Positions 4,646 through 62,863 of a stretch of 64,000 nt of DNA are shown one piece after another; position 1 is the stretch's first letter; each line of letters begins with the position of its first letter. Position numbers and translations under genes: made by a program. The notes under the pieces were generated by a model that was not told where the DNA came from, searched no databases, and saw nothing but the letters and a program-made list of their open reading frames with translations. The stretch comes from an uncultured Erysipelotrichaceae bacterium (lineage in GTDB: Bacteria; Bacillota_I; Bacilli_A; RF39; UBA660): assembly GCA_902764545.1 (NCBI GenBank), contig CACWWC010000008.1, positions 9,191 through 73,190 on the forward strand. Reading direction: 5' to 3'.

Positions 4646-4646
4646 T

Positions 4647-6035: not shown

Positions 6036-6073
6036 AATATATAGCACAATATTATTATTAAGGTGGTGTAAAA

Positions 6074-7450: not shown

Positions 7451-7469
7451 GAGGAACATTATAATTTAG

Positions 7470-8501: not shown

Positions 8502-8515
8502 GGATGTGAATATAA

Positions 8516-8674: not shown

Positions 8675-8677
8675 TTC

Positions 8678-10291: not shown

Positions 10292-10305
10292 TAAAGGAAT
10301 TACAT

Positions 10306-13380: not shown

Positions 13381-13394
13381 TGAAAGGAGTAAAA

Positions 13395-13946
13395 ATGAAA
13401 AACAAAATAAAATATGCACTACTCCTATTAATTGTTTTACTTTTATTTTATACTATTAAAGGAAGTTATGCCTTATACAACAGCATAGCTAATGGCAAAA
13501 TAAAAGACGAAAATAATTCTCAAGAAATAATAGCAAAATTTATTGTAAATAATCAATTGTCGGATAGCATTAATTTCGAAATAAGCGATTTATCTCCGGG
13601 AGACACAAAAACTTTTAATTTCAGTGTATCAAATACCATTAATACCACTCATTCAGATGTTTCTATAAAATATAAAATCAATATACACTCATATAGTTTG
13701 CCACTAACATATATTTTGACTCAAGACCAAAATACTAACAATTTACTAACATGTTCTGGAGAAGTAGATATTTCATGTGAAAGTAGTGAGCTAATCATGA
13801 ATTATAATGACAATACAATTAAAAACTTCACACTAAAAGTTACACTGCCAGAAGCAAATACAAATGAAGAGGCATTTGACTACACATATGCAAATAATAT
13901 TGATATTGTAACATTAACAATTGATTCATGGCAGATTATTAGCTAA
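13395..13946 (+). CDS. Small TasA/camelysin-size secreted protein with SipW-type-like signal (protein D)
   Basis: ATG 13395 lies 5 nt after AAGGAG. The track ORF starts at 13380, overlapping the upstream stop. TM helix ends GSYALYN. ISDLSPGDTKTFNFSVSN and C-terminal TLTIDSWQ resemble TasA strands (LKPGD...N, ...FEATQ; recalled from memory). Confidence 0.6.
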   Translation: MKNKIKYALLLLIVLLLFYTIKGSYALYNSIANGKIKDENNSQEIIAKFIVNNQLSDSINFEISDLSPGDTKTFNFSVSNTINTTHSDVSIKYKINIHSYSLPLTYILTQDQNTNNLLTCSGEVDISCESSELIMNYNDNTIKNFTLKVTLPEANTNEEAFDYTYANNIDIVTLTIDSWQIIS

Positions 13947-13960
13947 AGGATGTGATAGAA

Positions 13961-17863: not shown

Positions 17864-19419
17864 CAATTTTTAGGTTTCTATATGAAATATTATCTGTACT
17901 CTTTCAAGGTGTAATATACATATTTAAAGGATTATTTAATGGAATAAAAACAATTTTTTCTTTTGGAGACTATAAGAAAATCATTGATTTCTATTCAAAA
18001 GAATTAAATATAAGCGAATGGATACTAGTAACAATCTTAATTGTGGTATTAATTTTGATAGTAGGTTTAATTGCTTATATATTATATTACTTATTAAGAA
18101 AGTATATAATATTGAAAAAGAAATTGGTAAACCAAGAGTCACTGCTTGAAGAAATAAATACATTAAATGATCAGGTTGAAGGACTAGTTAAAGAAAATGA
18201 AAAAATAGCAGAAATATATTCTGGAATTACACCAAATTCTAATAATGGAAAGATAGGAGGCGCTAATGTTAATCCTATAAATCCAAATGAGCCACAAGTT
18301 GAAGGAGAAGAAGTAGAACAAGAAGAAGAGGTTGCAGATGAAAACATAAGATTCCCACAATTGTATAGAATTGATAAATTAAATAAAAAGACAAAAATAG
18401 TAAACTACAACAATACACAAACGTTGCCAGAATTGGTAGACGACTTTAGATGCTTTTCTGCAAGTCAATTACATCTATACTATAATGTAGAAATGATTCG
18501 TGTATTCTTCGGTGGACTAGCATGTGGTAAAATGTTAATATTCCAAGGTATTTCTGGTACAGGAAAAACATCCCTTGCATATGCATGGAGCAAATTTAAT
18601 AAATCGGACCCATGTATAGCATCAGTGCAACCTTCATGGCGTGATAGAACCGATTTCTTTGGCTACATGAACGAATTTACGAAAAGATTTAATGAAACAG
18701 GGGCTTTAGTTGAATTATATAGTGCATTATACGATGATAGATGTCACACAATTGTACTAGATGAAATGAATCTGGCACGTGTTGAGTACTATTTCGCAGA
18801 AGTACTATCAATACTTGAAATGCCAAATAGAGCAGAATGGATTGTTAGCCTTGTAACTAACACTGTTGAAAATGATCCAGTTAAACTAAATAATGGTAAA
18901 ATACGATTAAATGGAAATGTATGGTACATAGGAACAATCAATAACGATGATTCAACATTTGCAGTTACTGATAAAGTTTATGATAGAGCAATGCCTATTG
19001 ATATTAATACCAAAATCGATCCATTTGATTGTAGAAACCAAGAGGCCCTAGATTTAAATTCGGTTTATCTTGAATCATTATTTCACAAGGCATGTGAAGA
19101 TTTTCCAATATCTGAAAAAAGTCTTAAAAGCTTAAGTACAGTCGATAGTTTTATGATAACCAACTTTAAAATATCTTTTGGTAATCGTATCATGAAACAA
19201 TTAAACATATTTGTACCGGTATATGTTGCATGTGGAGGAGATGAAGTTGGAGGAATTGACTATTTCGTTGCAAAAAAAATATTACGTAAACTGGAACAAC
19301 AGAATATAGCATATATTCGTGACGCAATTGATCCATTCATAGAAGAATTGAATAGATTATTTGGAAAAGACAAAATGAAAGAATGTATTGAATACGTTAG
19401 TATGTTAAAGAAAGGTTAA
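17860..19419 (+). CDS. Membrane-anchored McrB-like (AAA_5/dynein-related) AAA+ ATPase (protein H)
   Basis: Hydrophobic N-terminus plus TM helix WILVTILIVVLILIVGLIAYILYYLL, coiled coil, acidic linker. Walker A GISGTGKTS (18547-18573). Walker B and downstream IVLDEMNLARVEYYFAEVLSILE (from 18751), a signature I recall from McrB-family ATPases. Confidence 0.7.
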   Translation: MTIFRFLYEILSVLFQGVIYIFKGLFNGIKTIFSFGDYKKIIDFYSKELNISEWILVTILIVVLILIVGLIAYILYYLLRKYIILKKKLVNQESLLEEINTLNDQVEGLVKENEKIAEIYSGITPNSNNGKIGGANVNPINPNEPQVEGEEVEQEEEVADENIRFPQLYRIDKLNKKTKIVNYNNTQTLPELVDDFRCFSASQLHLYYNVEMIRVFFGGLACGKMLIFQGISGTGKTSLAYAWSKFNKSDPCIASVQPSWRDRTDFFGYMNEFTKRFNETGALVELYSALYDDRCHTIVLDEMNLARVEYYFAEVLSILEMPNRAEWIVSLVTNTVENDPVKLNNGKIRLNGNVWYIGTINNDDSTFAVTDKVYDRAMPIDINTKIDPFDCRNQEALDLNSVYLESLFHKACEDFPISEKSLKSLSTVDSFMITNFKISFGNRIMKQLNIFVPVYVACGGDEVGGIDYFVAKKILRKLEQQNIAYIRDAIDPFIEELNRLFGKDKMKECIEYVSMLKKG

Positions 19420-19433
19420 AATAGGTAAATAAT

Positions 19434-20672
19434 ATGGAAAACTATTCATTAAAATATGAAAATCAATCTGATTTGTTTAATGATAAGTTCTTTAAAAATA
19501 TAAATCAAAGAGAACTTCTATCATCAGATTATACAGGATTAATAGTTAGCTTTGATTGGTTTGATTTAATCTTTGGAACTATACCATATGTAAACAATAT
19601 ATTTAATGATTTAAAATCATTCCTAAAGGAAGAAGAAGAAATACTTAAAATAGAAAAGGTTCGTAAAGTTGGACCGCCAACGTTCAAACATCTAGCTAAA
19701 CATACAAACTTTATTCAAGAATATGATGAAGAAAAAAATAAAATAACACCATCTAAACTTCTAAACACGTATAAGGAAGATACATTCAATACCTATGAAA
19801 ATCGTTTTATTTGTACTCTTGTTGATGAGCTGGCAATATTTTTGGAAGATATAAAGAATCAATTAACAGCACATGATACACATAATGAAGATTCATTTAC
19901 GTTTAATAGTAAAACCAAAGCAGATGGTGAGGAGATTTCATTCAATTTTATGCTAGATGCAAAAACAGACAGGTCGTCAGGCCTTGAAGAATTTGAGGCA
20001 AAATCAGAAATTGTAATGAATAATGTTAAGTCTTGGAGAGACAGTTTACTATATAAAACTCTAAAAAAAGAAAAAGCACCTGCAGTATCAGATCCAATTA
20101 AAAGAACTAATGTAATTTTAAAAAATCCAAACTTTCAAATGGCAGCTAATTTATGGGACTTTATTCACAACTTTAGTATAGATGCACATACCATAGAAAA
20201 CAATAGAGATGTATACAATCAATTACCAACAGTTTTCAATGATAAAGTTAATAATACTTTTTTATGTTTTTACTACATTATGAAATATACATGTGCAAAG
20301 AATAATTATCAAAAAGATATATATAACAAAGAATTAAATAAACTATTTTTGAAAGATATAAAAGAGAATATAAGATCACTTGCTAATGGAGATGATGCGT
20401 TAACAAAAGAAGATCTTGTAAATTTAGTAACATCAGAATATGATATCGTTAAAAAAGAAAAAGTAGTAGATTATTCAATGGTTGCAAATAAAATTAACAG
20501 TAGCTCAAAGAAATTTATGGATAAAATGGATTCAAGTTTCTTCCAAATAGGTGGAGATGGAGCAACACTTAATATGACACTCGACGAAGAAGAAGATAAT
20601 AAAGAAGAGAAAATCATAGTTGATGATATTGATAAAACATCAAGCAACTCAGGAGATGAAGAAAATGATTAA
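19434..20672 (+). CDS. Cytoplasmic partner protein, possibly DUF2357/McrC-like (protein I)
   Basis: No TM helix. NTYENRFICTLVDEL resembles the conserved core of DUF2357 McrC-like partners (memory-based). ADGEEISFNFMLDAK (LDAK at 19953-19964) could be a D...D-x-K nuclease remnant. Acidic tail. 14 nt after H, and overlaps J by 8 nt. Confidence 0.45.
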   Translation: MENYSLKYENQSDLFNDKFFKNINQRELLSSDYTGLIVSFDWFDLIFGTIPYVNNIFNDLKSFLKEEEEILKIEKVRKVGPPTFKHLAKHTNFIQEYDEEKNKITPSKLLNTYKEDTFNTYENRFICTLVDELAIFLEDIKNQLTAHDTHNEDSFTFNSKTKADGEEISFNFMLDAKTDRSSGLEEFEAKSEIVMNNVKSWRDSLLYKTLKKEKAPAVSDPIKRTNVILKNPNFQMAANLWDFIHNFSIDAHTIENNRDVYNQLPTVFNDKVNNTFLCFYYIMKYTCAKNNYQKDIYNKELNKLFLKDIKENIRSLANGDDALTKEDLVNLVTSEYDIVKKEKVVDYSMVANKINSSSKKFMDKMDSSFFQIGGDGATLNMTLDEEEDNKEEKIIVDDIDKTSSNSGDEEND

Positions 20673-50596: not shown

Positions 50597-53500
50597 ATGA
50601 AAAAAAATAAGTTATTAATTATGACATTTTTATTATCAAGTCTAATTACACTAAAACAAGTATATGCCTATGATGTAAATAACTATAAAGATAGAAATTT
50701 ATGTGGAAATTATGAAGTTGCGGGATTTCACACAGATGGATATATAGATAAAGTTGCCTGTTTTTCAAGTTTTAATGAAGCTAAAAGTTATATGAAGAAT
50801 AATGGGGCAGCCGATTTAGCTGTTATGACAAAGGTTAATGGTCAAACTAAAATAGTTGATGCTAATCAGGCATTACTAGATTTAAGTGTCAACCCAACAA
50901 CACTAACATACTTCTACGAAAATAGTGAATTAACAAGCAGACAATATACATATATGGATACTGGTTCCCTATATGGAGGGGTGGATGGAGGATTGCTTGA
51001 TACAAGCTACTCTAACTCAAAAGGAGTATTTACTGCAAAAGTTAGAACTGGAAATTTTACAGGATGGATATCACAAGAAGCATATGAGATGGTTCCAATA
51101 ACATGGTTAAAGTCATACAGTAGTTATACAGTAACAGCAGATTATATTAGACATAATTATGTTACAAAAATACAAAATGAATATAAATCATCAGGAGGTT
51201 CAACTATAGGACCTAAACCAGATATGCTCCCACAAGGAACATATTACAGTTTTGATGGTCATTATTTTTATACATCAATTGAAAAATTAATTAAAGATTA
51301 TAAAAATAATACATTTAACAGTTCTATAAACAAAGATAAGCCATATTATAATTATTATATGTATTTATCTAATCATACCAAAACAGCATACTCTAGTATA
51401 AACATAGATGAATATATAAGAAATAATTTAGGATATAGCAAGAATGTATATGGCCACACAGCAAGTAGCGGAACATCACGATTATATGGTTCGGGAACAT
51501 TCTTCTATTACGCTCAAGAAAAATATGGTGTAAATGCACTTTTAGCCTTAAGTTTAAGTAGAAATGAAACTGGAAATGGAAGAAGTAATCTTGCAATTAA
51601 CAAAAACAATGGATTTGGTCTAAATGCAGTTGATTCAAATCCAACACAAGCAGCAAATTGGTATTCAACATTCCAAAGTAGTATTTTAGGATATGCAAAT
51701 AAATGGATTACATATGGTTACGCACATCCAAGAGACTGGAGATACTTTGGACCACAATTTGGTGACAAATGGATTGGAATGAATGTAAAATACGCATCAG
51801 ATACATATTGGTCAGAGAAGATGGCAGCAAATTACTATAGTATGGATAAAGCACTAGGATTACAGGATTATAACTATTATCAATTAGGAGTGTTAAAAAA
51901 TCCAGCTAATGCATATCAGAATGCATCGACATCATCTAAATTTATATATCAATATCCAGAAGCAGAAGATGCCGTTGTAATCGTAGGAGAAACAACAGTT
52001 AATAATGAAAAATGGTATAAAGTAGTAAGTGATTTAAATATTGACTCTAATTATAATGAAGTAACCTCAGGAGCATACAATTGGAACTATGTATATGTCA
52101 AAGCAAGTGATATTAAAAAGATAAATACAGGAAAGAATGGTTATGTCAGTCCAACAGAAGTGATTGAATATACAAATAAAAACTATGAATATGATTTGTA
52201 TGACTCAAATAACACATACAATCCTAGAGTAGGAATAAGTACAAAAGATACAGATTATTATTATGATTCATCATTACAATCTAGAAAAAATCAAACACTA
52301 TTGAAAGACAGATATATAATAGTTTATGCAGTTGCAAAGCTAAATAATAGACCAGTGTCATATTTGGTTACAAGTGATTATTTCTATGATCAAAAACACT
52401 GGGTATCAGCAGATGCAATTAAGCTTACTGATACACCATATGGAAAAGTTACAGTGGATACGAATGATAATCAATATACATGGGTTAACTATAATACAGT
52501 AGATGAAGCATACTCAAAAATTGGAGGACTATATACCTACAGTTATGTTCCAGTTTTATCAAGCCAAGTAGTAGGAAATGATACATGGTATAAAGTACCA
52601 GTATCTCTATCTTCAAATGATAATGTATATGGTTATACACTAGCTAAATATAGTAACTATATAAGAATAGATTTATCCACACCAATTGTGGAAAAAAATC
52701 CTCCAGTAATAGAAGCTGTGGATAAAACAATATATGAAGGAGAAAAGTTTGATTCTAAAAAAGACATAAAAGCATATGACAACGAAGATGGTGATTTAAC
52801 TAACAAAATAGAAGTTATATCAAACAAAGTAGATATAAACACAATCGGTACATATGATGTTATATATAAAGTAGTAGATTCAACTAATGAAATAACAACA
52901 AAAACCATAAAAGTAACTGTAAAAGAAAACAAAGCACCAGAAATAATTGCAGAAGACACAGAAATATATGTAGGTGAAAAATTTGATGAATTAAAAAACA
53001 TTAAGGCATATGATAACGAAGATGGAGATCTAACAGCAAAAATTAAAATCAAAGAAAACACAGTGAATGAAGGAAAAGAAGGAACATATAAGGTTATTTA
53101 TGAAGTAAGTGACTCTAAAGAAAAAAGTACAATGAAAGAAATAAAAGTTGTAGTTAAAATTAAACCAGAAGAAGAAGATAATCAACCATCTAAAGAAGAT
53201 GAACTTGAAGAGAAGAAAGAAAACTATAACTTAGAAGAACTACTTGAAATGCAAGAAGAAGGAGAGTTTAACTTAGAAAGCATAGAGTTCAATAATACAA
53301 CAAAGAAATTTTCAATTAGTGGATACTTAATTATTAATGAAGTTAATAACGTTGATAAAGAATATGGTCTAATACTAGTTAATAAAAGTGATGATGAAGA
53401 CATCCATTTAATCGAAATAGATAAATGGACAAAAGATGTTCCATATAATTTAGGAACAGTTGATGGACATGACTATAGTGATATATGGTTTAGGGGTGAT

Positions 53501-54163
53501 ATTGACTTCTCAGACATACAAAATGGAGACTATGATCTATACATGATAGGTGCAACAGAAGATAGTTTTACAATTCAACCAGTAGAAAATTATTTTAATC
53601 AAAGTATAGATAGACGAGGAGAAGATACACAACACGGTTATAATTTTAAAGTCAATCAAAAATCAAAAAATAAAGAAATTTCATTATCAATAAGAGATGA
53701 ATTATATACAATTAGTGAAGCTCCAACCGATAGAAATATGGTCAATGGATATGAAGATATAACATTTAAAGACAATAAACTATATTTATATGGATATTCA
53801 TATGATTATGAAGGCATTTATAATAATGAACTATCAGTAACAAGAAAATTATTACTAGAAAATCAAACAACCTATAAAAATGAAGTTTATGAATTAGGTT
53901 GCAAAAAAGGTCCATTTACAATACAAACATTGGATAACAAAGATAAAACATATGCATGGTATGAAAAAGAAATAGAATTATCTAATTTAGATAAAGGTAA
54001 ATATAGTTTATATATTTACACAAAGACTAGCAACGCTACAAACTATGATGAAATAACTGATATGTTCAGAAGTATCAATGAAACAATGACTATTAACAAT
54101 AAAAAATATAGACTATACTATAATAGTAGCAGAGGAAACAGAATAGAAATAGAAGTTTCATAA
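50597..54163 (+). CDS. Secreted 1188-aa cell-wall hydrolase: N-acetylglucosaminidase (LytD-type) domain, SH3-like regions, two DUF5011 Ig-like repeats
   Basis: AAGGAGG RBS and signal peptide. GVNALLALSLSRNETGNGRSNLAINKNNGFGLNAVD matches glucosaminidase family blocks. Two copies of KAYDNEDGDLT...GTY.VIY.V.DS (about 52.69-53.16 kb). Confidence 0.75.
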   Translation: MKKNKLLIMTFLLSSLITLKQVYAYDVNNYKDRNLCGNYEVAGFHTDGYIDKVACFSSFNEAKSYMKNNGAADLAVMTKVNGQTKIVDANQALLDLSVNPTTLTYFYENSELTSRQYTYMDTGSLYGGVDGGLLDTSYSNSKGVFTAKVRTGNFTGWISQEAYEMVPITWLKSYSSYTVTADYIRHNYVTKIQNEYKSSGGSTIGPKPDMLPQGTYYSFDGHYFYTSIEKLIKDYKNNTFNSSINKDKPYYNYYMYLSNHTKTAYSSINIDEYIRNNLGYSKNVYGHTASSGTSRLYGSGTFFYYAQEKYGVNALLALSLSRNETGNGRSNLAINKNNGFGLNAVDSNPTQAANWYSTFQSSILGYANKWITYGYAHPRDWRYFGPQFGDKWIGMNVKYASDTYWSEKMAANYYSMDKALGLQDYNYYQLGVLKNPANAYQNASTSSKFIYQYPEAEDAVVIVGETTVNNEKWYKVVSDLNIDSNYNEVTSGAYNWNYVYVKASDIKKINTGKNGYVSPTEVIEYTNKNYEYDLYDSNNTYNPRVGISTKDTDYYYDSSLQSRKNQTLLKDRYIIVYAVAKLNNRPVSYLVTSDYFYDQKHWVSADAIKLTDTPYGKVTVDTNDNQYTWVNYNTVDEAYSKIGGLYTYSYVPVLSSQVVGNDTWYKVPVSLSSNDNVYGYTLAKYSNYIRIDLSTPIVEKNPPVIEAVDKTIYEGEKFDSKKDIKAYDNEDGDLTNKIEVISNKVDINTIGTYDVIYKVVDSTNEITTKTIKVTVKENKAPEIIAEDTEIYVGEKFDELKNIKAYDNEDGDLTAKIKIKENTVNEGKEGTYKVIYEVSDSKEKSTMKEIKVVVKIKPEEEDNQPSKEDELEEKKENYNLEELLEMQEEGEFNLESIEFNNTTKKFSISGYLIINEVNNVDKEYGLILVNKSDDEDIHLIEIDKWTKDVPYNLGTVDGHDYSDIWFRGDIDFSDIQNGDYDLYMIGATEDSFTIQPVENYFNQSIDRRGEDTQHGYNFKVNQKSKNKEISLSIRDELYTISEAPTDRNMVNGYEDITFKDNKLYLYGYSYDYEGIYNNELSVTRKLLLENQTTYKNEVYELGCKKGPFTIQTLDNKDKTYAWYEKEIELSNLDKGKYSLYIYTKTSNATNYDEITDMFRSINETMTINNKKYRLYYNSSRGNRIEIEVS

Positions 54164-54192
54164 AAAGCCAACAAATATTTGTTGGCTTTTTT
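54164..54192 (+). terminator. Rho-independent terminator
   Basis: AGCCAACAAA / TTTGTTGGCT stem followed by T6. Confidence 0.85.
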
Positions 54193-54234
54193 ACATAATA
54201 TCTCATCATATAGGTAAAATATTTACATATATTT

Positions 54235-54262
54235 TGTATTTCCTTTTAAAAAATGTTATAAT
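54235..54262 (+). promoter_or_regulatory. Candidate sigma-A promoter for the WXG/hydrolase operon
   Basis: TTGTAT (54235-54240), 16-nt spacer, TGTTATAAT extended -10 (TATAAT 54257-54262). Confidence 0.5.
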
Positions 54263-54299
54263 TAATTTAGTAAAAATAAAATGAAAGTATGGTGATTAT

Positions 54300-55250
54300 A
54301 TGGTAAGCAGTGGAACAGTTAATAGTGATGCAACAACATTAAATGGATACTTAACAAGTTATCAATCATATATAAGTGAATTGAGTGGTTCTTGGAAAGG
54401 AACATCATTTGATAGTATTAATTCGCAAGCTGAGTCCTTTGTATCAGAATATAAAGCAATAGTAACTCAGATGAATAGTTTTGCAAATGCATGTGCTGCA
54501 TATGAAAAATATATAAAGTTAAAAAATGAAATTGCTCAGACAGAAGCAGATAGAGCAAATGCAGCCGATCAATATAAGTCTACTTATGATGAGCCATTAT
54601 CAGCAATGAATAGTGACCTACAAACATTAAAAACTAGTATTCAAACCTATCTCTCAGAAGCATCATCACCAAGCCTGACGGCAACAGCAGTATCAGCTTT
54701 AGCTACTGCGACATCCTCAAAATCTTCATCAAGTTCAGGAAATTCAGATATTGCGGCACAAAATAAAGCTTTTGTTGAATCAATACTATCTGAAAAAGGA
54801 AAGACAATTGATGATTACCCAGGATTTTATGGAGAATGGTGTGCTCAATTTGTATCAGAAATGTTAAATAGAAATGGATATGATATACAGCCATCTGCAA
54901 TTGCAGGATATATTGATGATGGCTCAATATTTAAATCATTAAGAAGTGCAGGAGCTACTGTTCACTTAGATCTTGCATCTCAATACCATGATGGTGGAGG
55001 AGAAGGTAATTCAGAATATGATCCAAACTATTCTCCACAACCAGGTGACGTAGTACTATTTGATTTTGGTTATAATGGAATGGGTGTAACTGATCACGTT
55101 GGAATTGTTGTTCAAGATAATGGCGATGGTACAATTAGAACCATCGAAGGAAATACTACCGGTGATGCCGGGGACAGTTGTGTAGAAATAAAAGATAGAG
55201 ATCGAGACGAAGTATTTGGATATGCAACCCCAGTAAAGAAGAGCAATTAA
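54300..55250 (+). CDS. WXG100-like N-terminal domain fused to CHAP peptidoglycan amidase/peptidase domain, no signal peptide
   Basis: ELSGSWKGTSFDS (W-x-G) in a ~100-aa helical N-terminus, then a Ser-rich linker. CHAP: GEWCAQFVS (Cys), TDHVGIVV (His), TIEGNT. Confidence 0.7.
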   Translation: MVSSGTVNSDATTLNGYLTSYQSYISELSGSWKGTSFDSINSQAESFVSEYKAIVTQMNSFANACAAYEKYIKLKNEIAQTEADRANAADQYKSTYDEPLSAMNSDLQTLKTSIQTYLSEASSPSLTATAVSALATATSSKSSSSSGNSDIAAQNKAFVESILSEKGKTIDDYPGFYGEWCAQFVSEMLNRNGYDIQPSAIAGYIDDGSIFKSLRSAGATVHLDLASQYHDGGGEGNSEYDPNYSPQPGDVVLFDFGYNGMGVTDHVGIVVQDNGDGTIRTIEGNTTGDAGDSCVEIKDRDRDEVFGYATPVKKSN

Positions 55251-55269
55251 TAGTGCGGGAGGTATTCTA

Positions 55270-56619
55270 GTGAGCGTATTTATGATAGAAACCAGTAATC
55301 TAGATTCAGCATCTTCTTCTATCGGGAAAATTGCATCACAAATGTCTGATTTAGCAAGCAGTGTAGGCGGATATGATACAAGTTGTGATGATGGGTTTGA
55401 TTTTGCATCAGTAAAAGGGTTAATTGAATCTAACATCGAAGCATGCATTACTAAAGTTCAGAATACAGCGACAATATTAAATACAGTATCACAATCCCAC
55501 ACCGAATTACAAAGTAGTTTGAAGTTTGAAGATCCAGCAGAAACAACAAAGAAAAGCAGTAGTTCAGAAGGCACAAATTCAGAAAATAGTAATTCTAGAG
55601 GAAATACTTCAAGTGGTGGATACTCTGGAGGAGGTTCATCAGATGGAGGTTCTTATTCTGGTGGATACTCATCATCAGCAGTTCCAACTGCAGCAGCTGC
55701 ACTACAAAAAGTATCAACAACAAAAGAAACAAAACAAGATGAAGTTGTAGAAATAACAAACTCATTTAAAGAAGTTGGATATGTATATATAGACAAAGAT
55801 AAAATAAATGATGAAGCTAAAAAAGTGTTTGAAAATGAAGAATTTGAATATGATGAAAATGGTTATGCAAAAATTGGCAACAGGTATGTTGTAATGGTTG
55901 ACTCCTCAATTGCTAAAGAAGGAGATGTTCTTAAATTTACACAAGAAGACGGAACAGAAATAGAAGCAATTGTAGGGTTAACAACAACAGATAACAAATA
56001 TGCAGATAAAATAAACTTTGTTCTTTCACCTGATAAAGAATTTACGGAGGAAACAAAGAAGATATCTGAAAGTATATTAAAAAATAATAAAAAGATTGAA
56101 ATAATTGAGAACATATTAAAATCAAGTATTACGGGAGAAAATAGCGTGTTAATTGAATCAACAATGGACGAAGTAGGTAACACTATCAGTGATTATTCAG
56201 GATTAGGATTTAATGATGGAAACTGGTGTGCAGATTTTGTTTCTCATACATTACAAAAGAATGGATATGATGTAGACTGGTCATCAGTAGCTGGCGATGG
56301 AGATGGAGAAATATTTGGATGTCTTAGAGATAGTGGCGCCACAGTACATCTTGATTTAGGCGCACAGGCCAAAGGATTACAAGAATCTTCTGAATATGAT
56401 CCAAGTTACATACCACAACCGGGAGATGTAGTTATATTTGATTTTGAACAAGATGGATTAAACGATCATGTTGGTTTTGTTGTAAAAGATAATGGAGACG
56501 GAACCATAACCACACTTGAAGGTAATACAAGTGGAGAAGCTGGTGGAAGCTGCGTTGCAATACATACTGATAGACAAAGAAGTATTGTATATGGCTACGC
56601 AACCCCAGTAAAAAAATAA
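55270..56619 (+). CDS. Helical N-terminal domain (type ii) + G/S linker + small beta domain + CHAP domain, no signal peptide
   Basis: GTG start at the position equivalent to the ATG of paralog 56639. N-terminal 95 aa are about 80% identical to 56639. CHAP: GNWCADFVS, NDHVGFVV, TLEGNTSG. Confidence 0.7.
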   Translation: MSVFMIETSNLDSASSSIGKIASQMSDLASSVGGYDTSCDDGFDFASVKGLIESNIEACITKVQNTATILNTVSQSHTELQSSLKFEDPAETTKKSSSSEGTNSENSNSRGNTSSGGYSGGGSSDGGSYSGGYSSSAVPTAAAALQKVSTTKETKQDEVVEITNSFKEVGYVYIDKDKINDEAKKVFENEEFEYDENGYAKIGNRYVVMVDSSIAKEGDVLKFTQEDGTEIEAIVGLTTTDNKYADKINFVLSPDKEFTEETKKISESILKNNKKIEIIENILKSSITGENSVLIESTMDEVGNTISDYSGLGFNDGNWCADFVSHTLQKNGYDVDWSSVAGDGDGEIFGCLRDSGATVHLDLGAQAKGLQESSEYDPSYIPQPGDVVIFDFEQDGLNDHVGFVVKDNGDGTITTLEGNTSGEAGGSCVAIHTDRQRSIVYGYATPVKK

Positions 56620-56638
56620 GTAAGAAGGAGATATGTAA

Positions 56639-58057
56639 ATGAGCTTATTTATGATAGAAACTGGAATTTTAGATTCAGCATCATCTTCTATTGGTCAAAT
56701 TGCATCACAAGTATCTAACCTAGCAAGCAGCGTCAGCGGATATGATACAAGTTGTGATGATGGGTTTGATTTTGCATCAGCAAAAAATATTATTGCATCA
56801 AATCTAGAAGCATGTGTTACAAAGGTTCAAAATACAGCAAGCATTCTAAACGCAGTTTCACAGTCACATACAGAATTACAAAACAGCCTAAAGTTTGAAG
56901 ATCCTGCAGAAGCTGCAAAGAAGAATAGTAGTACAAAAAGTACGAGTTCACAAAGTAGCTATTCCGGAGGCAGTTCATCAAGTGGTGGATATTCCGGAGG
57001 TAGTGGATATTCAAGCGGTGGAGGCTACTCAGGAGGATATTATTCAGGAGAGTCTCCATCAAGTATAACCACAACAACCACCACGACAACTACTACAACT
57101 ACAGACGAAACACCAACATTAATCACAGAAAAGCCAGAAAAAGTTGACTATGACGTTGTAGAAAAAGATGATATGAATGAAGAACAAAAAGCGGTATTAA
57201 ATAATGAAGAATTTGAGTATATTGAAAATTACGCAATGCTTGGAGAAAGATATGTAGTAAAATGTGATTCATCCCTTGGAAAAATTGGAGATATTTTACG
57301 CTTCACTCAAAATGACGGAACAGTTGTAGAATGTGTTATTGGAGCAACAACAGTAGGAGCAGCTTCAAAAGGAATTCTACACTTCATAGTCAAAGATAAG
57401 GACAATATTAAAGAAAAAGATATCTGCAAAAATATACTTACGAACAATAATAAAATTGAAAATATTGGAAATATAACTGATGAGAAAAAGTCTGATACCA
57501 GTACAACTGGAGTTATGAGTAATGGTTTAGGAACAAGTACAGCAAAAACTACAGGTACATATGTCTTAAATGGTAATGTACTTGATACTACTAATCCTGT
57601 AACAACAGGGGAAAAGTATGAATTGTCAGATGACGATCTAGCATTCCTAGGATATGTAGCATCATCAGAACAAGGTAGTGTTGATGGTGCAAAATTAGAA
57701 CTATCCCTTATGGCAAATCTATATGAAGAAAATAAAAATAATTTTAGTAGTGTAAGAGATTATGTAGAAAATAGTGGATGGTTTGGAAGTTCCTATGGAA
57801 GCGAATATAGTTACCCAGGCGATGAGTATATCGCTGTAGCAAAAGATATACTTGTTAATGGAAATCGTTATTTAAACTCAAATGTTGTTGAACATGATTA
57901 CTTAGGCGATATTGTATATTGTAGTACAGGTGATGTATATGATACAGACAGCTATGTTCCGGGAGAAACAGTGCTAGAAAATCAATGGGGAGCAAAATAT
58001 GTCTTTGTAGGATTTGCTCCAAACGGTGGAGACCCATTCGGTTATCTTATTAACTAA
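56639..58057 (+). CDS. Helical N-terminal domain (type ii) + Thr-run linker + small beta domain + C-terminal domain X (possibly SleB/CwlJ-like cell-wall hydrolase)
   Basis: AAGGAG RBS. MSLFMIETGILDSASSSIG... and a T11 run. C-terminal LSDDDLAFLGYVASSEQGSVDGAKLELSLMANLYEEN resembles the start of SleB-type Hydrolase_2 domains (weak, motif only). Confidence 0.55.
   Translation: MSLFMIETGILDSASSSIGQIASQVSNLASSVSGYDTSCDDGFDFASAKNIIASNLEACVTKVQNTASILNAVSQSHTELQNSLKFEDPAEAAKKNSSTKSTSSQSSYSGGSSSSGGYSGGSGYSSGGGYSGGYYSGESPSSITTTTTTTTTTTTDETPTLITEKPEKVDYDVVEKDDMNEEQKAVLNNEEFEYIENYAMLGERYVVKCDSSLGKIGDILRFTQNDGTVVECVIGATTVGAASKGILHFIVKDKDNIKEKDICKNILTNNNKIENIGNITDEKKSDTSTTGVMSNGLGTSTAKTTGTYVLNGNVLDTTNPVTTGEKYELSDDDLAFLGYVASSEQGSVDGAKLELSLMANLYEENKNNFSSVRDYVENSGWFGSSYGSEYSYPGDEYIAVAKDILVNGNRYLNSNVVEHDYLGDIVYCSTGDVYDTDSYVPGETVLENQWGAKYVFVGFAPNGGDPFGYLIN
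57566..58057 (+). repeat. 492-bp module (domain X coding) duplicated at 59463-59954, roughly 85-90% identical by eye
   Basis: Collinear, equal-length match read directly, e.g. TCATCAGAACAAGGTAGTGTTGATGG and GAAAATCAATGGGGAGCAAAATATGTCTTTGT are shared. Confidence 0.85.
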
Positions 58058-58092
58058 TAATAAAAATATGAATATGTAAGGAGAAAATGAAT

Positions 58093-58380
58093 ATGGCAAA
58101 ATATGTATGTGATACAGATACAGTCAAATCTATTGGTGAAAAATTATGCCAAACAGCATCAGATATTAGTAATGGAGTACAAAGCTACTCATCATCAATT
58201 GAAAGTGATTTATCAACATGGACGGGAACAGCTAAAGAATCATTTAACAGCTCAAATGCGACTTATGTTACAACAGCAAAAACAGATGCGACATATATAA
58301 ATGCTCTAGGTGAATTTGTAAAAAATGCTGCTGAAAGCATCCAATCTCTAGAAGATGAATTAGCAGGATTACAAATTTAG
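58093..58380 (+). CDS. WXG100 (ESAT-6-like) family protein
   Basis: ATG 58093 lies 9 nt after AAGGAG (track ATG 58087 is only 3 nt after it). 95 aa, helical, DLSTWTGTAKESF (W-x-G). Confidence 0.75.
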   Translation: MAKYVCDTDTVKSIGEKLCQTASDISNGVQSYSSSIESDLSTWTGTAKESFNSSNATYVTTAKTDATYINALGEFVKNAAESIQSLEDELAGLQI

Positions 58381-58456
58381 GTGTAAAGATACTGCCAATT
58401 ATATTGTGTTAATGAAAAATATGTTTTATAATGAATTTAGATAGGAGGAATAGATT

Positions 58457-58753
58457 ATGTCAGGATTACATGCTGATACAAGCGCAATGAATACAAATGG
58501 TAAGGATACTGTAGCAAATGCTGAATATTTTTCAAACGAATTAGCAAATTTAAGAAATAATGTCGATGGACTAATGACTATTTGGAGAGGATTATCAGCT
58601 AATGAATTTAATAAATCTTATGAAGAACAGGCTCAAAATTTACAAGCCTTTCAACAATTATTAAATGAATTAGGTGAAAATATCAGCAAAAGTGCAAGTA
58701 TTCTTAATCAAACTGAAGAAGAGAATGCCCAAGCTGGAGCAAACTTATTTTAA
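58457..58753 (+). CDS. WXG100 (ESAT-6-like) family protein
   Basis: AGGAGG RBS. 98 aa, LMTIWRGLSANEF (W-x-G) in the centre of a predicted helical hairpin. Confidence 0.8.
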   Translation: MSGLHADTSAMNTNGKDTVANAEYFSNELANLRNNVDGLMTIWRGLSANEFNKSYEEQAQNLQAFQQLLNELGENISKSASILNQTEEENAQAGANLF

Positions 58754-58769
58754 GGAGGTTTATTAAATC

Positions 58770-59069
58770 ATGAATGAATTTGAAGAGAAAGATTATGCAG
58801 GAGCAAGAAGTTATGCAGATGCAGTAAAAACAAATGCAGATAATATCATGGGTATTTTCAATGATATTGATGGTGTTATGAATAACTTATACGGAGCAAA
58901 TTGGCAAAGTACAGGTGCAGATAGTGCCAGAGATAGATATAATCAAATTCGTAAAAATTATGAAGTTTTTTATGAAAAAGTTGTTGCAATGAAAACTCAT
59001 ATATATAATGTTACAGCTGCTAATGAAGAAGCAGATGCAGCTGCAAGTCAAACAATTTCAAGTATATAA
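58770..59069 (+). CDS. WXG100-like small helical protein (variant W-Q-S-T-G loop)
   Basis: AAGGAGG RBS. 99 aa, YGANWQSTGADSARDRY. Adjacent to a canonical WXG100 gene, as in EsxA/EsxB-type pairs. Confidence 0.65.
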   Translation: MNEFEEKDYAGARSYADAVKTNADNIMGIFNDIDGVMNNLYGANWQSTGADSARDRYNQIRKNYEVFYEKVVAMKTHIYNVTAANEEADAAASQTISSI

Positions 59070-59080
59070 TATTGAATCTT

Positions 59081-59107
59081 AAAGACTATGAGAATAGTCT
59101 TTTTTTA
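59081..59107 (+). terminator. Rho-independent terminator
   Basis: AAAGACTAT-GAGA-ATAGTCTTT stem followed by a T-run. Confidence 0.8.
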
Positions 59108-59141
59108 GAATAGATAAATAAAATAATTGGAGAAAAAAACT

Positions 59142-59954
59142 ATGAATGAATACAGTGTTTCAAACTATGATATTTTTAATAATGCTACTGAAACAGCTGA
59201 TAGCTTAAGTAAAACGTTAACTACTGCAAAAAGTGAAATTGAAAGTTGCTCAACTCAATTAAAAAATGAATCAATATTTTTTGGCCCAGTAAGTGATCAG
59301 GCAACAGAAGGTTGTGAAAAGGCCCTGTCAAAGGCAGAAGTATTAAATAATAATTCGGGAATTATAAAGAATTATTTACAACAAACATCTACAAATTATC
59401 AATTGGGAGATAATAAGGCAGAACAAGAAATACTATCTACTTCAACTGATGGCAAAATGATTTTAGATGGAAATGTAATTGACACAACAAAACCAGTGAC
59501 GACAGGAGCGAAATACAATTTGTCAGATGATGATCTAGCTTTTCTAGGATACGTTGCCTCATCAGAACAAGGTAGTGTTGATGGAGCAAAACTAGAGCTA
59601 TCTCTTATGGCAAATCTATATGAGGAAAATAAGGATCATTATAGCAGTGTAAGAGATTATGTAGAAAACAGTGGATGGTTTGGAAGTTCCTACGGAAGCG
59701 AATATAACTACCCAGGAGATGAGTATATAGATGTTACAAAAGACGTACTTGTAAATGGTAATCGTTATCTAAATTCCAATGTTGTTGAACATGATTATTT
59801 AGGAGACATCGTATCTTGCAGTACGGGAGATGTATATGATAAGAGTTGTTATGTACCAGAAGAAACAGTACTGGAAAATCAATGGGGAGCAAAATATGTC
59901 TTTGTTGGGTTTGCTCCAAACGATGGGGATCCATTTGGTTATTTAGTAGATTAG
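59142..59954 (+). CDS. LXG/WXG-like N-terminal domain (type iii, F-x-G loop) fused to domain X (same as 56639 C-terminus)
   Basis: ATG 59142 lies 9 nt after GGAG (track TTG 59127). MNEYSVSNYDIFNNA...ESIFFGPVSDQA parallels the 60046 N-terminus. The C-terminal 163 aa are nearly identical to the 56639 C-terminus. Confidence 0.65.
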   Translation: MNEYSVSNYDIFNNATETADSLSKTLTTAKSEIESCSTQLKNESIFFGPVSDQATEGCEKALSKAEVLNNNSGIIKNYLQQTSTNYQLGDNKAEQEILSTSTDGKMILDGNVIDTTKPVTTGAKYNLSDDDLAFLGYVASSEQGSVDGAKLELSLMANLYEENKDHYSSVRDYVENSGWFGSSYGSEYNYPGDEYIDVTKDVLVNGNRYLNSNVVEHDYLGDIVSCSTGDVYDKSCYVPEETVLENQWGAKYVFVGFAPNDGDPFGYLVD

Positions 59955-60045
59955 GAAAGGACAATAATTCGACATCCAGAATAATCAAATTATTGTATAT
60001 TAATCTTAAATATGATAGAATTAGATTATCATAGGGAGTGATTTT

Positions 60046-60831
60046 ATGAACGAATATAATGTTTCTGATTATGGTATATTTAATAACGCAGTAGGGACTG
60101 TAGACGGATTAAGCAAGGTTTTAAGCACTGTAAAAGATGAAATAAGTACTTGCTCACAACAATTAGGCAACGAATCAATATTCATGGGTCCTATAAGCGA
60201 GCAGGCTGTTGAAGGATGTACAACTGCATCATTAAGAGCTGACTCATTATCAACCAACTGCAGTACTATAAAAAGTTATTTAGTAGAAACCTCAACAAAT
60301 TATCAATCTGGAGATAGTAAAGCACAACTAAAAGTATTATCTACCGGAGCAAATGGAGAATTAGGTACATCAACTTCAAGTGCAAACTTTAGTGGAGATA
60401 CTAATCAAGATAAACTATATAGTTATTTATCATCTCAAGGTTTCAATAATGCAGCAATATGTGGTATTCTAGCTAATATTGAGAGTGAATCTGGATTTAG
60501 CACTACCGCACTTGGAGATGGTGGAACATCATATGGAATATGTCAATGGCACGAAGGAAGATGGGATAGTCTGAAAGATTATTGCAGTGAAAATAATCTT
60601 GATTCAGATTCTCTTGAAGGACAAGCTCAATATTTAGTAAGTGAATTAAAAAATAGTTATCCTGATGTATATGAGACATTACAAAATGTACCAAATACAG
60701 CAGAAGGAGCATATCAAGCAGCATATAAATGGACAACTGATTTTGAAATCCCTGAAGATAAATACAGTGAAGGAGAAAATAGAGGAGATAATGCTCAAAC
60801 AACATATTGGGAAAAGTATGGAAGCAAATAA
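60046..60831 (+). CDS. LXG/WXG-like N-terminal domain (type iii) fused to phage-tail-lysozyme-type muramidase domain
   Basis: MNEYNVSDYGIFNNA...ESIFMGPISEQA. C-terminal AICGILANIESESGFSTTALGDGGTSYGICQWHEGRW...LEGQAQYLVSEL matches the phage tail lysozyme family pattern. Confidence 0.7.
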   Translation: MNEYNVSDYGIFNNAVGTVDGLSKVLSTVKDEISTCSQQLGNESIFMGPISEQAVEGCTTASLRADSLSTNCSTIKSYLVETSTNYQSGDSKAQLKVLSTGANGELGTSTSSANFSGDTNQDKLYSYLSSQGFNNAAICGILANIESESGFSTTALGDGGTSYGICQWHEGRWDSLKDYCSENNLDSDSLEGQAQYLVSELKNSYPDVYETLQNVPNTAEGAYQAAYKWTTDFEIPEDKYSEGENRGDNAQTTYWEKYGSK

Positions 60832-60858
60832 AAAAGATGAAAAATTTCATCTTTTTTT
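60831..60858. terminator. Bidirectional terminator between convergent genes
   Basis: AAAAAGATGAAA / TTTCATCTTTTT hairpin, A-run on one side and T-run on the other. Overlaps the stop of the minus-strand gene. Confidence 0.7.
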
Positions 60859-62863
60859 ATTCTGCTAAAACAATTGAAATTGTACTACAAGAAGTAGTAG
60901 TACCACTTCTAAAACCGTCTATAAAATCATTTGTATTAAATCCATCTGCCTTTCTACATGAAACATTAACTGTTAATCCAGGATAACTAGATTCAAGTTG
61001 TTTTTTAACATTAGCTGCAGCATCACTACAACTATTAAAACCATCTGTAGCCGAAGAGATACGTGACTTTAATATTGTGTATTGTTCACAAGTTTTTACA
61101 GGAGCAGCAGGCTCTGGTGTTTTAGAACTACTATTATTTGAAGAGTTATTGGAACTACTACCATTACTATTATTGGTGTTGGAATTATTGCTTTTAGAAC
61201 CGCTATCTTTATTATTGTTAGCACTTTCAGAATTATTACTATTCTTTCTTTTATTAACTGTACTTTCATCACTCTTACCATTACTTAAATTAACAGTAAT
61301 AGTAGTAGTACAACTAACCTCACTTCCTGAACTGATAGATTGATTAACAACTTTATCTTTTGCTTTATCACTAGATACATAAACAAAACTATATTCCAAA
61401 TTTGCTTTTTTTAATTTAGATATCGCATCAGCCTTACTTAAGCCTTTTAAATCAGGTACCTTACAATTCTCACCATCACTTATTGTAACAACAATTGCTT
61501 CATCATTTTTTATAGTTTGTCCTTTTTTAATAGAATAACTAATAACCTCCCCAGCCTTAACAGACTGACTAAACTCATGTCTCACTTCATATTTAATTTC
61601 ATACTTATCAGCCCAGTTATAAAAATCATCAATTGTCTTAAAGCTAGGCATTTTTAATTTCCCACGAGATAGTGTAACTTTAATAACTGTCCCTTGTTCA
61701 ACAATCTCACCTTTTTCTCTATCAACATTAATAACATTACCAGACTTAACACTATCATCATATTTATCTATAAATTCTAGCTTTAATCTGTTTTTAACAG
61801 CCCATTCAGTAAGTTTAGTAATAGACATATTTTTAAGGCTAGGAATTTTAACTTTAGGACCTTTGCTTATGGTAACAACAATTTCCTTATCATCAACTTG
61901 AACAACCTCTCCAGCTGGAATACTTTGACTACAAGCAAATCCTTTTTTTATTTTATTAGAAAAGTCATATTCGAATTTGTATCGTAAATGATGCTGTTTC
62001 ATATAAAATTCAATCTCAAATTTACTTTTATTGGTAAAATCAATTAGTTTAACATCATTAGAGTTACCCTCATCACCATAAGAAAAAGTTAATTTTAATT
62101 CTTCATCTCTTTTTAAATTGCCACTTTTGCTTTGCTCAATAACGGTATCTTTTAACTTATCAGATTCAATAAAATCTATAACTACGTTATTTAAATAATT
62201 CTTTTTAACATAATTAATAACTCTTTCACTATCCCAAGTTAGCATACTAGGAATAATTATCTCTTTGTATGGACTTGGACCATCACTAACAGAAACCTTA
62301 ATACTATTAACATTTTTAAGACTAGAATCAAAATCTTTATCTTGACTGATTATTTTATACTCTTCAACCATATCACTATATTCAAAATCAGTATCTAAAT
62401 TAATATTATTCTTATTTGCCCATTTAATAGCCTCTGTTAAAGACTTACCCCTAAGATCCTCAACAGTATTAATAGGTGAGTTAAAAATATTAAGATTATT
62501 ATTAATATCATAAGAATAATATGCCAATAAAAGTATCATTAAAAACAAACTAGATATTTTATTTTTATTATTAGTAGTAAGACCAACAATAACAAAAATA
62601 AAAGTAAATATAATAAGAATAGAACAATTAATAATAGAATTAATTGAAGAAGAATTATCAACAATATTTAAATAAAAATAAATACCAGCAAAGATTAGTA
62701 CAATGCAACTAAAAATAATATTAAGAATAGATTTATTACAATTATTATTTTTAGTAGTCTTTTTATCTAAAACTTTATCTTTAGAAATAATCCTATCCGT
62801 GTCTTCTTTTTTAATCGTGTTTTTCTTTTCCATTTTATCATCACTATTTATGTTCTTGGCCAT
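60857..62863 (-). CDS. Multi-PASTA-repeat membrane protein without kinase or PBP domain
   Basis: AGGAGG RBS. Short K-rich cytoplasmic N-terminus, 3 TM helices, about 6 PASTA-like repeats (e.g. VPDLKGLSKADAISKLKKANLEYSFVY...VVNQSISSGSEV), S/N-rich low-complexity linker, Cys-containing C-terminal domain. Confidence 0.7.
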   Translation of the reverse strand: MAKNINSDDKMEKKNTIKKEDTDRIISKDKVLDKKTTKNNNCNKSILNIIFSCIVLIFAGIYFYLNIVDNSSSINSIINCSILIIFTFIFVIVGLTTNNKNKISSLFLMILLLAYYSYDINNNLNIFNSPINTVEDLRGKSLTEAIKWANKNNINLDTDFEYSDMVEEYKIISQDKDFDSSLKNVNSIKVSVSDGPSPYKEIIIPSMLTWDSERVINYVKKNYLNNVVIDFIESDKLKDTVIEQSKSGNLKRDEELKLTFSYGDEGNSNDVKLIDFTNKSKFEIEFYMKQHHLRYKFEYDFSNKIKKGFACSQSIPAGEVVQVDDKEIVVTISKGPKVKIPSLKNMSITKLTEWAVKNRLKLEFIDKYDDSVKSGNVINVDREKGEIVEQGTVIKVTLSRGKLKMPSFKTIDDFYNWADKYEIKYEVRHEFSQSVKAGEVISYSIKKGQTIKNDEAIVVTISDGENCKVPDLKGLSKADAISKLKKANLEYSFVYVSSDKAKDKVVNQSISSGSEVSCTTTITVNLSNGKSDESTVNKRKNSNNSESANNNKDSGSKSNNSNTNNSNGSSSNNSSNNSSSKTPEPAAPVKTCEQYTILKSRISSATDGFNSCSDAAANVKKQLESSYPGLTVNVSCRKADGFNTNDFIDGFRSGTTTSCSTISIVLAE

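Follow-up and report, generated by a model that had tools for sequence, protein, structure and literature searches.

The 64,000-nucleotide stretch of DNA analysed here, referred to as the window, comes from an uncultured Erysipelotrichaceae bacterium (contig CACWWC010000008.1) and harbors a cluster of eight open reading frames (ORFs) at positions 54300-60831 of its + strand, lettered A to H in gene order. Five of these ORFs (A, B, C, G and H) encode large proteins combining a predicted helical N-terminal domain with putative wall-acting domains, while the three small ones in between (D, E and F) encode proteins of the WXG100 kind. An earlier inspection of the letters alone, here called the sequence-only reading, had taken the cluster for an effector arsenal belonging to a secretion system of type VIIb (T7SSb) in which every cargo is a murein hydrolase. 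All eight ORFs are present on the + strand as follows.

54300..55250, + strand: effector A, 316 aa; predicted type-1 hairpin, Ser/Thr-rich linker, C-terminal CHAP amidase/endopeptidase
55270..56619, + strand: effector B, 449 aa; predicted type-2 hairpin, disordered Ser/Gly-rich linker, middle beta domain, CHAP
56639..58057, + strand: effector C, 472 aa; predicted type-2 hairpin, linker, middle domain as in B, then domain X
58087..58380, + strand: WXG100 protein D, 97 aa, or 95 aa if started at 58093; W-T-G motif
58457..58753, + strand: WXG100 protein E, 98 aa; W-R-G motif
58770..59069, + strand: WXG100 protein F, 99 aa; begins 16 nt past E
59142..59954, + strand: effector G, 270 aa; predicted type-3 hairpin, short linker, domain X
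60046..60831, + strand: effector H, 261 aa; predicted type-3 hairpin, CwlT/phage-tail-type lysozyme (muramidase) domain

The gaps between consecutive genes from A to H measure 19, 19, 29, 76, 16, 72 and 91 nt. Gaps of only 16-91 nt leave no space for small immunity ORFs, and a search for immunity genes found no ORF in any of them and no downstream gene conserved between the window and a syntenic cluster on contig L010, in agreement with the sequence-only reading. A hydropathy scan likewise bore out its claim that the five large proteins have no Sec signal: A-H show no signal-like or transmembrane (TM) segment, with a maximum 19-residue Kyte-Doolittle mean of 1.45, whereas the neighboring LCP and PASTA proteins carry TM-grade segments (maxima of 2.89 and 2.79, respectively). 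The neighboring glucosaminidase has a hydrophobic, signal-like N-terminal segment (12-residue maximum 2.53). Finally, the proposed sharing of domains among the five proteins is evident from all-against-all BLAST, in which identity is 57% between the CHAP domains of A and B, 54% between B and C across residues 1-309, 71% between C and G across domain X (~210 C-terminal residues), and 38% between G and H, chiefly in their N-termini.

Hairpin domains, WXG100 proteins and cargo

The N-termini of all five large proteins are predicted to be helical hairpins of ~95 aa belonging to three sequence types, with type 1 found in A, type 2 in B and C, and type 3 in G and H. AlphaFold2 models built with homologue alignments cover the N-termini of G and B. 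In the model of G (mean pLDDT 87.9), helices spanning residues 10-42 and 49-98 (pLDDT 85-92) precede domain X at residues 105-270, and F46-F47-G48 is located at the hairpin turn, where WXG100 proteins have W-x-G; in H, F-M-G occupies the turn of the type-3 hairpin. The model of B displays helices at residues 9-33 and 45-84 (pLDDT 74-80), followed by a disordered, Ser/Gly-rich linker at residues 91-157. Of the three helical types described by the sequence-only reading, types 2 and 3 are thereby modeled as hairpins, and the W-K-G it had noted is located at residues 32-34 of A. Here, Pfam aligns WXG100 (PF06013) with residues 4-64 at 25.3 bits (1.9e-5), under the family cut-off of 27.3 bits.

Profile-profile comparisons with hhalign, each a single pairwise run on small alignments made from the window proteins and their relatives, matched type 1 (A) to WXG100 with a probability of 94.8% and type 3 (G and H) over its full length with 92.7%. 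In addition, type 3 matched a fourth N-terminal type found only in relatives (96.5%), and another type seen in relatives, called TW and having an obvious W-x-G, gave a match at 96.9%. The sequence-only reading had suggested comparing the N-termini with models of LXG, WXG100 and SACOL2603-type effectors. Of these, WXG100 gave the sub-threshold match on A, while the LXG and SACOL2603-type models, as well as EspC, gave no convincing match on the five large proteins in Pfam and NCBIfam. The term that fits the five best is WXG100-like hairpin fusion, rather than LXG protein.

In the type-2 proteins B and C (window 55270-55560 and 56639-56930), residues 34-45 form an invariant loop, G-Y-D-T-x-C-x-D-G-F-D-F, in the position of W-x-G. 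All type-2 homologues examined keep this loop, for which known families offer no match. Some relatives consist of the type-2 hairpin and the middle domain alone. WXG100/PPE matches on P0017-like homologues were considered as evidence on type 2 and rejected, as they belong to the TW type of N-terminus, and these homologues share with C only the middle domain and domain X. A homologue search with the type-3 N-terminus of H alone returned one match.

The three small genes of ~97 codons that the sequence-only reading had placed among the effectors are confirmed as WXG100 genes by E and F, which score 38.4 and 32.9 bits against Pfam WXG100, whereas D, at 26.3 bits, falls slightly under the cut-off. 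E also passes NCBIfam TIGR03930 (45.5 versus a cut-off of 44.85 bits). The turn motif is W-T-G in D and W-R-G in E, while F has a non-canonical W-Q-S-T-G.

As for the cargo, CHAP (PF05257, cut-off 26 bits) is found in A with 44.3 bits (2.5e-11) and in B with 46.8 bits (4.2e-12). The motifs holding the catalytic Cys and His, WCA(Q/D)F and (T/N)DHVG, are visible in both, reading WCAQF and TDHVG in A. In H, residues 120-254 match Phage_lysozyme2 (PF18013, cut-off 28.2 bits) with 116.7 bits (1.2e-33) over 136 of the 140 profile positions, and the identity of the protein to phage tail lysins is only ~25%. Neither C nor G matches a Pfam family, save for a sub-threshold, low-complexity match to a glycine-rich family (GRP) in C. 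The cargo assignments of the sequence-only reading therefore stand for CHAP and for the Phage_lysozyme2 muramidase, while the SleB-likeness it had ascribed to the domain shared by C and G is not seen in sequence but is recovered by fold.

This shared domain, domain X, is 64-86% identical between lineages whose N-termini are too divergent to align. Its invariant residues include E-Q-G, part of an early acidic motif A-x-x-E-Q-G as in the spore-cortex lytic enzymes SleB and CwlJ, several more Glu, and E-H-D. Among 12 domain-X sequences, none matched the SleB/CwlJ family Hydrolase_2 (PF07486) at E<=10, and a profile search of PDB sequences yielded no SleB chain; instead, eight of the 12 weakly matched DUF7017 (best E 0.0038). 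In structural searches with Foldseek, the only meaningful PDB match of the G model, which superposes on it, was the SleB catalytic domain 4fet (probability 0.92, TM-score 0.65 on the target, E 0.68 for the two-domain query). The top matches of domain X in BFVD were phage proteins that bear the names 'Cell Wall Hydrolase' or 'SleB' (probability 0.99-1.0, E 9.7e-4 to 3e-2). It is therefore with moderate confidence that the SleB-likeness of domain X is placed in its modeled fold and not in its sequence. Unlike SleB and CwlJ, it also lies in a context unrelated to germination.

An exhaustive profile search gathered 639 domain-X representatives (50% identity clusters, E<=1e-3), and distant members are fused to CHAP, PG_binding_1, Phage_lysozyme2, Peptidase_M23, Amidase_2, Hydrolase_2 or Big_2/dockerin domains. 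Among 219 domain-X proteins, 53 start with a signal- or TM-like segment and ~63 with a hairpin type. Fusion to murein-hydrolase domains and position behind Sec signals point to extracellular wall chemistry, and, judging by fold and domain association, domain X may be an extracellular SleB-like module that cleaves glycan strands. The domain also occurs near the C-terminus of three giant proteins (P0390, P0435 and P0443; 3,835-5,140 aa) with mutually similar N-termini, which may be 'polyvalent' proteins of phages or integrative and conjugative elements (ICEs), or tape-measure-like.

B and C hold a further domain that the sequence-only reading had not mentioned, a middle beta domain at about residues 160-285 (pLDDT 85-91 in the B model). 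It has no Pfam match, and its Foldseek matches, namely MltA, cerato-platanin, expansin, kiwellin and p97-N, are weak (all E>=0.037) but are all double-psi beta-barrels. D211, D219 and D227 are near-invariant. The modeled domain may thus be double-psi-barrel-like, and its three Asp faintly recall the '3D' domain.

Related clusters and their link to EssC

Homologues of the cluster proteins, including the 291 found for C, all derive from metagenomes or metagenome-assembled genomes (MAGs) labeled as uncultured Erysipelotrichaceae, Bacilli or Firmicutes, with rumen or gut as a frequent source. At least 13 contigs carry a near-identical copy of the cluster, the longest of them measuring 194.7 kb. 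In one near-identical strain (L003:6674-8276; ENA ERZ913641 scaffold_5121), C is split into ORFs of 166 and 294 aa, D is cut to 56 aa, and the upstream glucosaminidase gene is also split; this could reflect either decay of an accessory cluster or an assembly error. More distantly, the rumen MAG contigs L010-12 keep the gene order (type 1-CHAP, type 2-CHAP, type 2-X, three WXG100 genes, type 3-lysozyme), with proteins 63-91% identical to those of the window, although G is absent from L010. In the window, the cluster is flanked by a gene for an LCP and PASTA protein, the glucosaminidase gene (50597-54163) and a convergent gene for a PASTA-domain protein, and Pfam thus upholds the claim that the neighbors are envelope genes. 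In L010-12, the locus lies instead between gpr/spoIIP and znuA/rnc. The same gene order in another chromosomal setting indicates that the cluster is a self-contained unit, independent of the envelope neighborhood of the window.

A larger homologous arsenal is present in L009:1-21467 (ENA ERZ27257205 k141_4322913), adjoined by a DUF4176 gene and several WXG100 pairs, with at least five WXG100 genes. DUF4176 is a family of T7SSb-associated toxin chaperones (PMC10765036, PMC13492133). L009 also holds hairpin fusions of the TW and fourth types, a protein with a lysozyme2 domain, a GH25 muramidase with a Sec signal, a NAGPA-domain protein and a 137-aa helical protein.

EssC, the ATPase of T7SSb, was sought in the window and in related contigs, with NCBIfam TIGR03928 as the equivalog model (cut-off 778 bits). 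Its absence from the 64 kb, claimed by the sequence-only reading, is borne out by Pfam, which gave no FtsK_SpoIIIE or EssC match among ORFs of at least 120 aa, and by tblastn with five EssC queries. In relatives, however, homologous effectors lie downstream of EssC or on a contig that also carries it. The MAG RUG12438 (uncultured Erysipelotrichaceae; L021) carries in order tilS, ftsH, a 1,500-aa protein identified as EssC by TIGR03928 (924 bits), ORFs of 87 and 238 aa, a 556-aa protein whose C-terminal domain X is 71% identical to that of C, and two WXG100 genes, so that the effector lies downstream of EssC with at least one small ORF between. In L037, the order is ftsH, EssC, an 84-aa ORF, ORFs of 245 and 483 aa, a WXG100 pair, another 84-aa ORF, one of 242 aa and a 476-aa effector that has a middle domain plus domain X and shares 49% identity with C. 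On the 113.9-kb JGI contig Ga0318466_10003715 (L026/L027), EssC lies ~40 kb from an orthologue of D that is followed by three type-3 effectors, one of which has domain X and one lysozyme2. This distance shows that such clusters can be 'orphans' remote from EssC, like that of the window. Matching EssC clusters with effector clusters exposed shared contigs for P0089/P0193 and P0041/P0477, with no overlap for the species of the window. Among GTDB representatives, where this species is apparently missing, six related loci were found.

The relatives also bear on how the small proteins may pair. The orthologue of D in L027 is 47% identical and stands directly ahead of the three type-3 effector genes, which suggests D as a candidate partner of type-3 hairpins. 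E is 87% identical to its counterpart in the syntenic cluster of L010, and F is 24-28% identical to the second WXG100 protein of the pair adjoining EssC in L021, L030 and L035; together, E and F are probably a pair of the EsxA/EsxB kind.

The EssC cassettes of relatives are the following.

L021:3333-8809, EssC cassette
L030:7001-15541, EssC cassette
L035:8001-15961, EssC cassette
L037:683-11431, EssC cassette
L026:10001-15272, EssC cassette

These cassettes sit compactly between housekeeping genes (tilS-ftsH, era-recO/glyS and rplM-rpsI). Each consists of EssC, a conserved ORF of 84-87 aa and soluble helical proteins, with a WXG100 pair in all except L026, and EssC is the sole protein with a TM segment. 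They may represent a reduced T7SSb, or the missing components could be located elsewhere in the genome. The 84-87-aa ORF following EssC looks EsaB/YukD-like by eye alone and matches nothing in Pfam or NCBIfam, and the name EsaB was not adopted. At the end of the cassette, a 399-aa FemAB-family gene is convergent in L030:15545-16744(-) and L037:12594-13793(-) according to Pfam, followed in both by a MurJ/MatE-like flippase gene, and an ORF of the same size at the same position in L021:14379-15578(-) is probably FemAB as well. FemABX enzymes set the peptidoglycan cross-bridge and provide immunity to some bacteriolysins. The FemAB gene could thus provide intrinsic protection, or it could be plain housekeeping.

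The same comparisons bear on two explanations that do without a T7SS. The first is that the cluster is a remnant of phage lysis or virion-lysin genes, or a wall-hydrolase module of a conjugative element (CwlT/VirB1-like). The Phage_lysozyme2 domain of H, which is also found in CwlT, would fit, as would the occurrence of domain X in giant phage- or ICE-like proteins (3,800-5,100 aa), the phage proteins heading its BFVD matches, and the G+C content of the cluster, which at 0.32-0.35 (window 54001-60000) exceeds the 0.27-0.30 of the flanks and may be due to Gly/Ser/Ala-rich linkers or to foreign origin. Against this, domain X found no tblastn match in 50,697 phage records, H is only ~25% identical to tail lysins, and no capsid, tail, integrase, relaxase or type IV secretion system genes lie around the cluster in the window. 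Furthermore, the ATPase linked to the homologues is an EssC equivalog and not a conjugative coupling protein. Phage origin, which the sequence-only reading had itself raised as an objection, was accordingly rejected, and an origin of this kind appears highly improbable.

The second explanation draws on sporulation. Signal-less sporulation hydrolases are known, such as CwlJ and CwlC of Bacillus subtilis, and the proteins could be hydrolases made in the cytoplasm of a spore-former that get to their substrate with no membrane to cross, like CwlJ, CwlC and CwlH in mother-cell lysis and cortex hydrolysis, with the helical N-termini acting as assembly or localization domains. While the SleB/CwlJ-like fold of domain X agrees with this, as does the position of the closest syntenic cluster beside gpr and spoIIP and of another relative close to spoIID, the adjacency to gpr/spoIIP is not kept in the window. 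Three WXG100 genes embedded in the cluster, homologous fusions in EssC loci, WXG100 profile matches of types 1 and 3, and the presence of domain X behind Sec signals and in non-sporulation architectures all speak against it. This makes a sporulation role unlikely, though less so than a phage or conjugative origin.

Proposed export route and target

Taken together, the chromosomal cluster is probably (at about 0.7) a set of T7SSb substrates that would pair with small WXG100 proteins and cut peptidoglycan outside the membrane, with a putative EssC encoded elsewhere in the genome. We infer pairing, export, enzymatic activity and target from the domain content, the hairpins, the absence of signals and the linkage to EssC in relatives. 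Each large protein would be modular, with a ~95-aa hairpin of the WXG100 kind, a flexible linker and one or two peptidoglycan-cleaving domains. These would be CHAP, acting on peptide stems or cross-bridges, the CwlT-type lysozyme, the SleB-like domain X, which would cleave glycan strands, and a barrel of the 3D/MltA kind in B and C. Within the cytoplasm, each of the hairpins may pair with one of D, E and F into a four-helix bundle, where D would probably serve type 3 and E and F probably act as a classical pair. The bundle would then be recognized by the EssC ATPase and exported without Sec, and outside the membrane the enzymes may cut murein at complementary bonds. The central claim of the sequence-only reading, a T7SSb-type arsenal with murein hydrolases as its only cargo, is in this way supported by the hairpin predictions, hhalign, the embedded WXG100 genes, the EssC-linked homologues and the DUF4176 gene adjoining the arsenal of L009.

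Several observations weigh against this. EssC is missing not only from the window but also from the 10 kb upstream and ~7 kb downstream of it, and the EssC loci of relatives have no recognizable EsaA, EssB or EssA, making for an atypical machinery. The score of D lies just below the WXG100 cut-off, the hhalign support for type 3 is moderate, and all hhalign values stem from one pairwise run each, made with small alignments of helical proteins. Type 2 (B and C) matched neither WXG100 nor anything else in hhalign; as an internal negative control, this also shows that the method does not merely pair any helical segments. LXG (PF04740) has no match at E<=1 in any of the five large proteins, and their N-domains span ~95 aa compared with ~200 aa for LXG. 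The claim that the N-termini are WXG/LXG-like thus finds support for types 1 and 3, through their WXG100 matches, and none at the sequence level for type 2, and it falls for LXG. Moreover, the lack of immunity genes is atypical of antibacterial T7SS toxins, and a highly conserved cargo behind variable N-termini is the reverse of classical polymorphic toxins.

Regarding the target, for which the sequence-only reading had offered both interbacterial toxicity and self-directed wall remodeling, we marginally prefer, with odds close to even, an attack on neighboring Gram-positive cells by a bacteriolytic cocktail to action on the producer's own wall. T7SSb has an established role in competition. 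Antagonism is favored by a shuffled, multi-copy arsenal without wall anchors, whose content varies between strains and species (G absent in L010; C and D broken in L003). Alternatively, the enzymes may be exported by the same T7SSb and act on the wall of the producer, either as autolysins in growth and cell separation or as wall-openers for the secretion machine and its substrates. This self-directed role is favored by the lack of immunity genes, the strong conservation of the cargo (64-86% identity of domain X between lineages, behind variable N-termini), and the fact that all recognizable cargo fused to these N-termini relates to murein, with neither nucleases nor NADases observed. It would also sit well with the envelope genes flanking the window cluster and with EssC loci in relatives that have no EsaA-like conduit protein; the passage of T7SSb substrates through the wall is recognized as an open question (PMC13492133). 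Yet the neighborhood in L010-12 is not an envelope one, the variable gene content is not expected of housekeeping autolysins, Pfam detected no autolysin-type wall anchors (LysM, SH3b or CWB), and five paralogues with shuffled modules resemble an arsenal. On balance, action on the producer's own wall is the less likely of the two. If it did apply, the wall-opener version would be functionally analogous to EssH of Staphylococcus aureus, except that the T7SS itself would deliver the hydrolases.

In the loci of relatives, no membrane protein besides EssC occurs, and it is joined there by the 84-87-aa protein, soluble helical proteins and WXG100 pairs. More speculatively, it is conceivable, though less likely than not, that a stripped-down T7SSb serves in this clade chiefly as a Sec-independent export route for murein hydrolases. 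In that case the fusions would be the first bacteriolytic T7SS toxins without immunity genes, or else the cell's own autolysins, and dozens of interchangeable hairpin types would act as address labels for small WXG100 partners.

Returning to export by T7SSb, the closest known counterparts include LXG polymorphic toxins such as TelA-D of Streptococcus intermedius and EsaD of S. aureus with EsxB/C/D, which likewise combine a helical N-terminal export domain, a C-terminal effector and small WXG100-like partners (PMC10765036, PMC13492133). LXG toxins use Lap or EsxB/C/D partners to form a helical bundle recognized by EssC (PMC10765036). Some of them are also encoded away from the core locus. The toxins depend on EssC, and they share with the related cluster of L009 an association with DUF4176 (PMC10765036, PMC13492133). 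In contrast, the N-domains here are ~95-aa hairpins without an LXG match, it is the cargo that is conserved while the N-termini vary, and immunity genes are lacking. In 2012, Zhang, Iyer and Aravind predicted bioinformatically that toxins of T7SS carry N-terminal domains of the WXG and LXG types for trafficking (PMC3482391); types 1 and 3 and the TW type of relatives fit the WXG type, whereas type 2 is not recognizably WXG. The same catalogue lists an NlpC/P60 peptidase toxin for the type VI secretion system (T6SS), Photorhabdus virulence cassette (PVC) and TcdB routes alone, not for T7SS (PMC3482391), and the toxin table of a 2026 review holds no murein hydrolase (PMC13492133).

Peptidoglycan-directed enzymes do occur around secretion systems. 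EssH has a Sec signal peptide, unlike the proteins here, which are signal-less and carry T7-type N-domains. Similar to A and B, however, EssH and the CHAP proteins of streptococcal and enterococcal T7SS loci are CHAP murein hydrolases tied functionally or genomically to T7SSb, and EssH serves assembly of the T7SSb machine and is required for it (PMC13059805, PMC9900821). For the CHAP proteins in T7SS loci, no functional link to secretion is established (PMC13492133). TelC, a lipid II phosphatase, is a T7SSb effector that targets the cell-wall pathway on the outer side of the membrane (PMC5555719, PMC6193138), but it degrades the precursor lipid II and not the polymer, and it has an LXG domain and the immunity protein TipC. 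Finally, the mixture of secreted peptide-cutting and glycan-cutting enzymes resembles the peptidoglycan effectors of T6SS, the Tae amidases and Tge muramidases, for which Tse1 and Tse3 of Pseudomonas aeruginosa offer the comparison. To our knowledge, these Gram-negative effectors reach the periplasm by injection, and periplasmic immunity proteins accompany them in every case. Searches of the open-access literature found hairpin-hydrolase fusions described nowhere.

The wider window and implications

Two further elements frame the cluster in the window.

54164..54299, + strand: upstream control region, read from sequence; terminator hairpin of the glucosaminidase gene, then an extended -10-like element, TGTTATAAT, ahead of A
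60832..60870, no strand assigned: cluster-end hairpin and T-run directly 3' of H, AAAAGATGAAAAATTTCATCTTTTTTT, common to the convergent PASTA gene

A consensus scan for promoters and terminators was uninformative in the AT-rich DNA of the window, with 27 sites found versus 36 expected. Elsewhere in the window, a gene for a surface adhesin with a thioester domain (TED) and a SpaA fold is followed by a sortase gene (1849-3760). Positions 3788-15019 hold large ORFs without a Pfam match (285, 405, 458, 343, 537, 1024 and 188 aa) and end in a dockerin-I protein; most of this block, from the 405-aa ORF onward, is replaced by a transposase and unrelated genes in strain L040, marking it as a variable island. 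ORFs of 651, 519 and 412 aa follow in succession at 15908-20672, the last with a restriction-enzyme-like DUF2357, and may form a defence locus.

T7SSb effectors characterized to date are mainly LXG toxins, acting as nucleases, NADases or membrane-depolarizing toxins, with one lipid II phosphatase among them. Compared with these, route and architecture in the cluster are known ones, while the class of cargo, the lack of immunity genes, the uncharacterized domain X and the apparently reduced machinery are unusual. The practical value is limited by uncultured organisms and by functional steps that are inferred. Still, domain X stands out as an uncharacterized and widespread wall-hydrolase module, weakly related to DUF7017, and an unusually compact T7SS locus is indicated in Erysipelotrichaceae of gut and rumen. 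A link between secretion and the CHAP proteins of T7SS loci is listed as an open question in the 2026 review, as is the way in which T7SSb substrates get through the thick Gram-positive wall (PMC13492133). Hydrolases carrying a T7-type export hairpin would give a handle both on this link and on how substrates cross the wall, and, if so, a bacteriolysin-like class of weapons would be added to T7SS biology.

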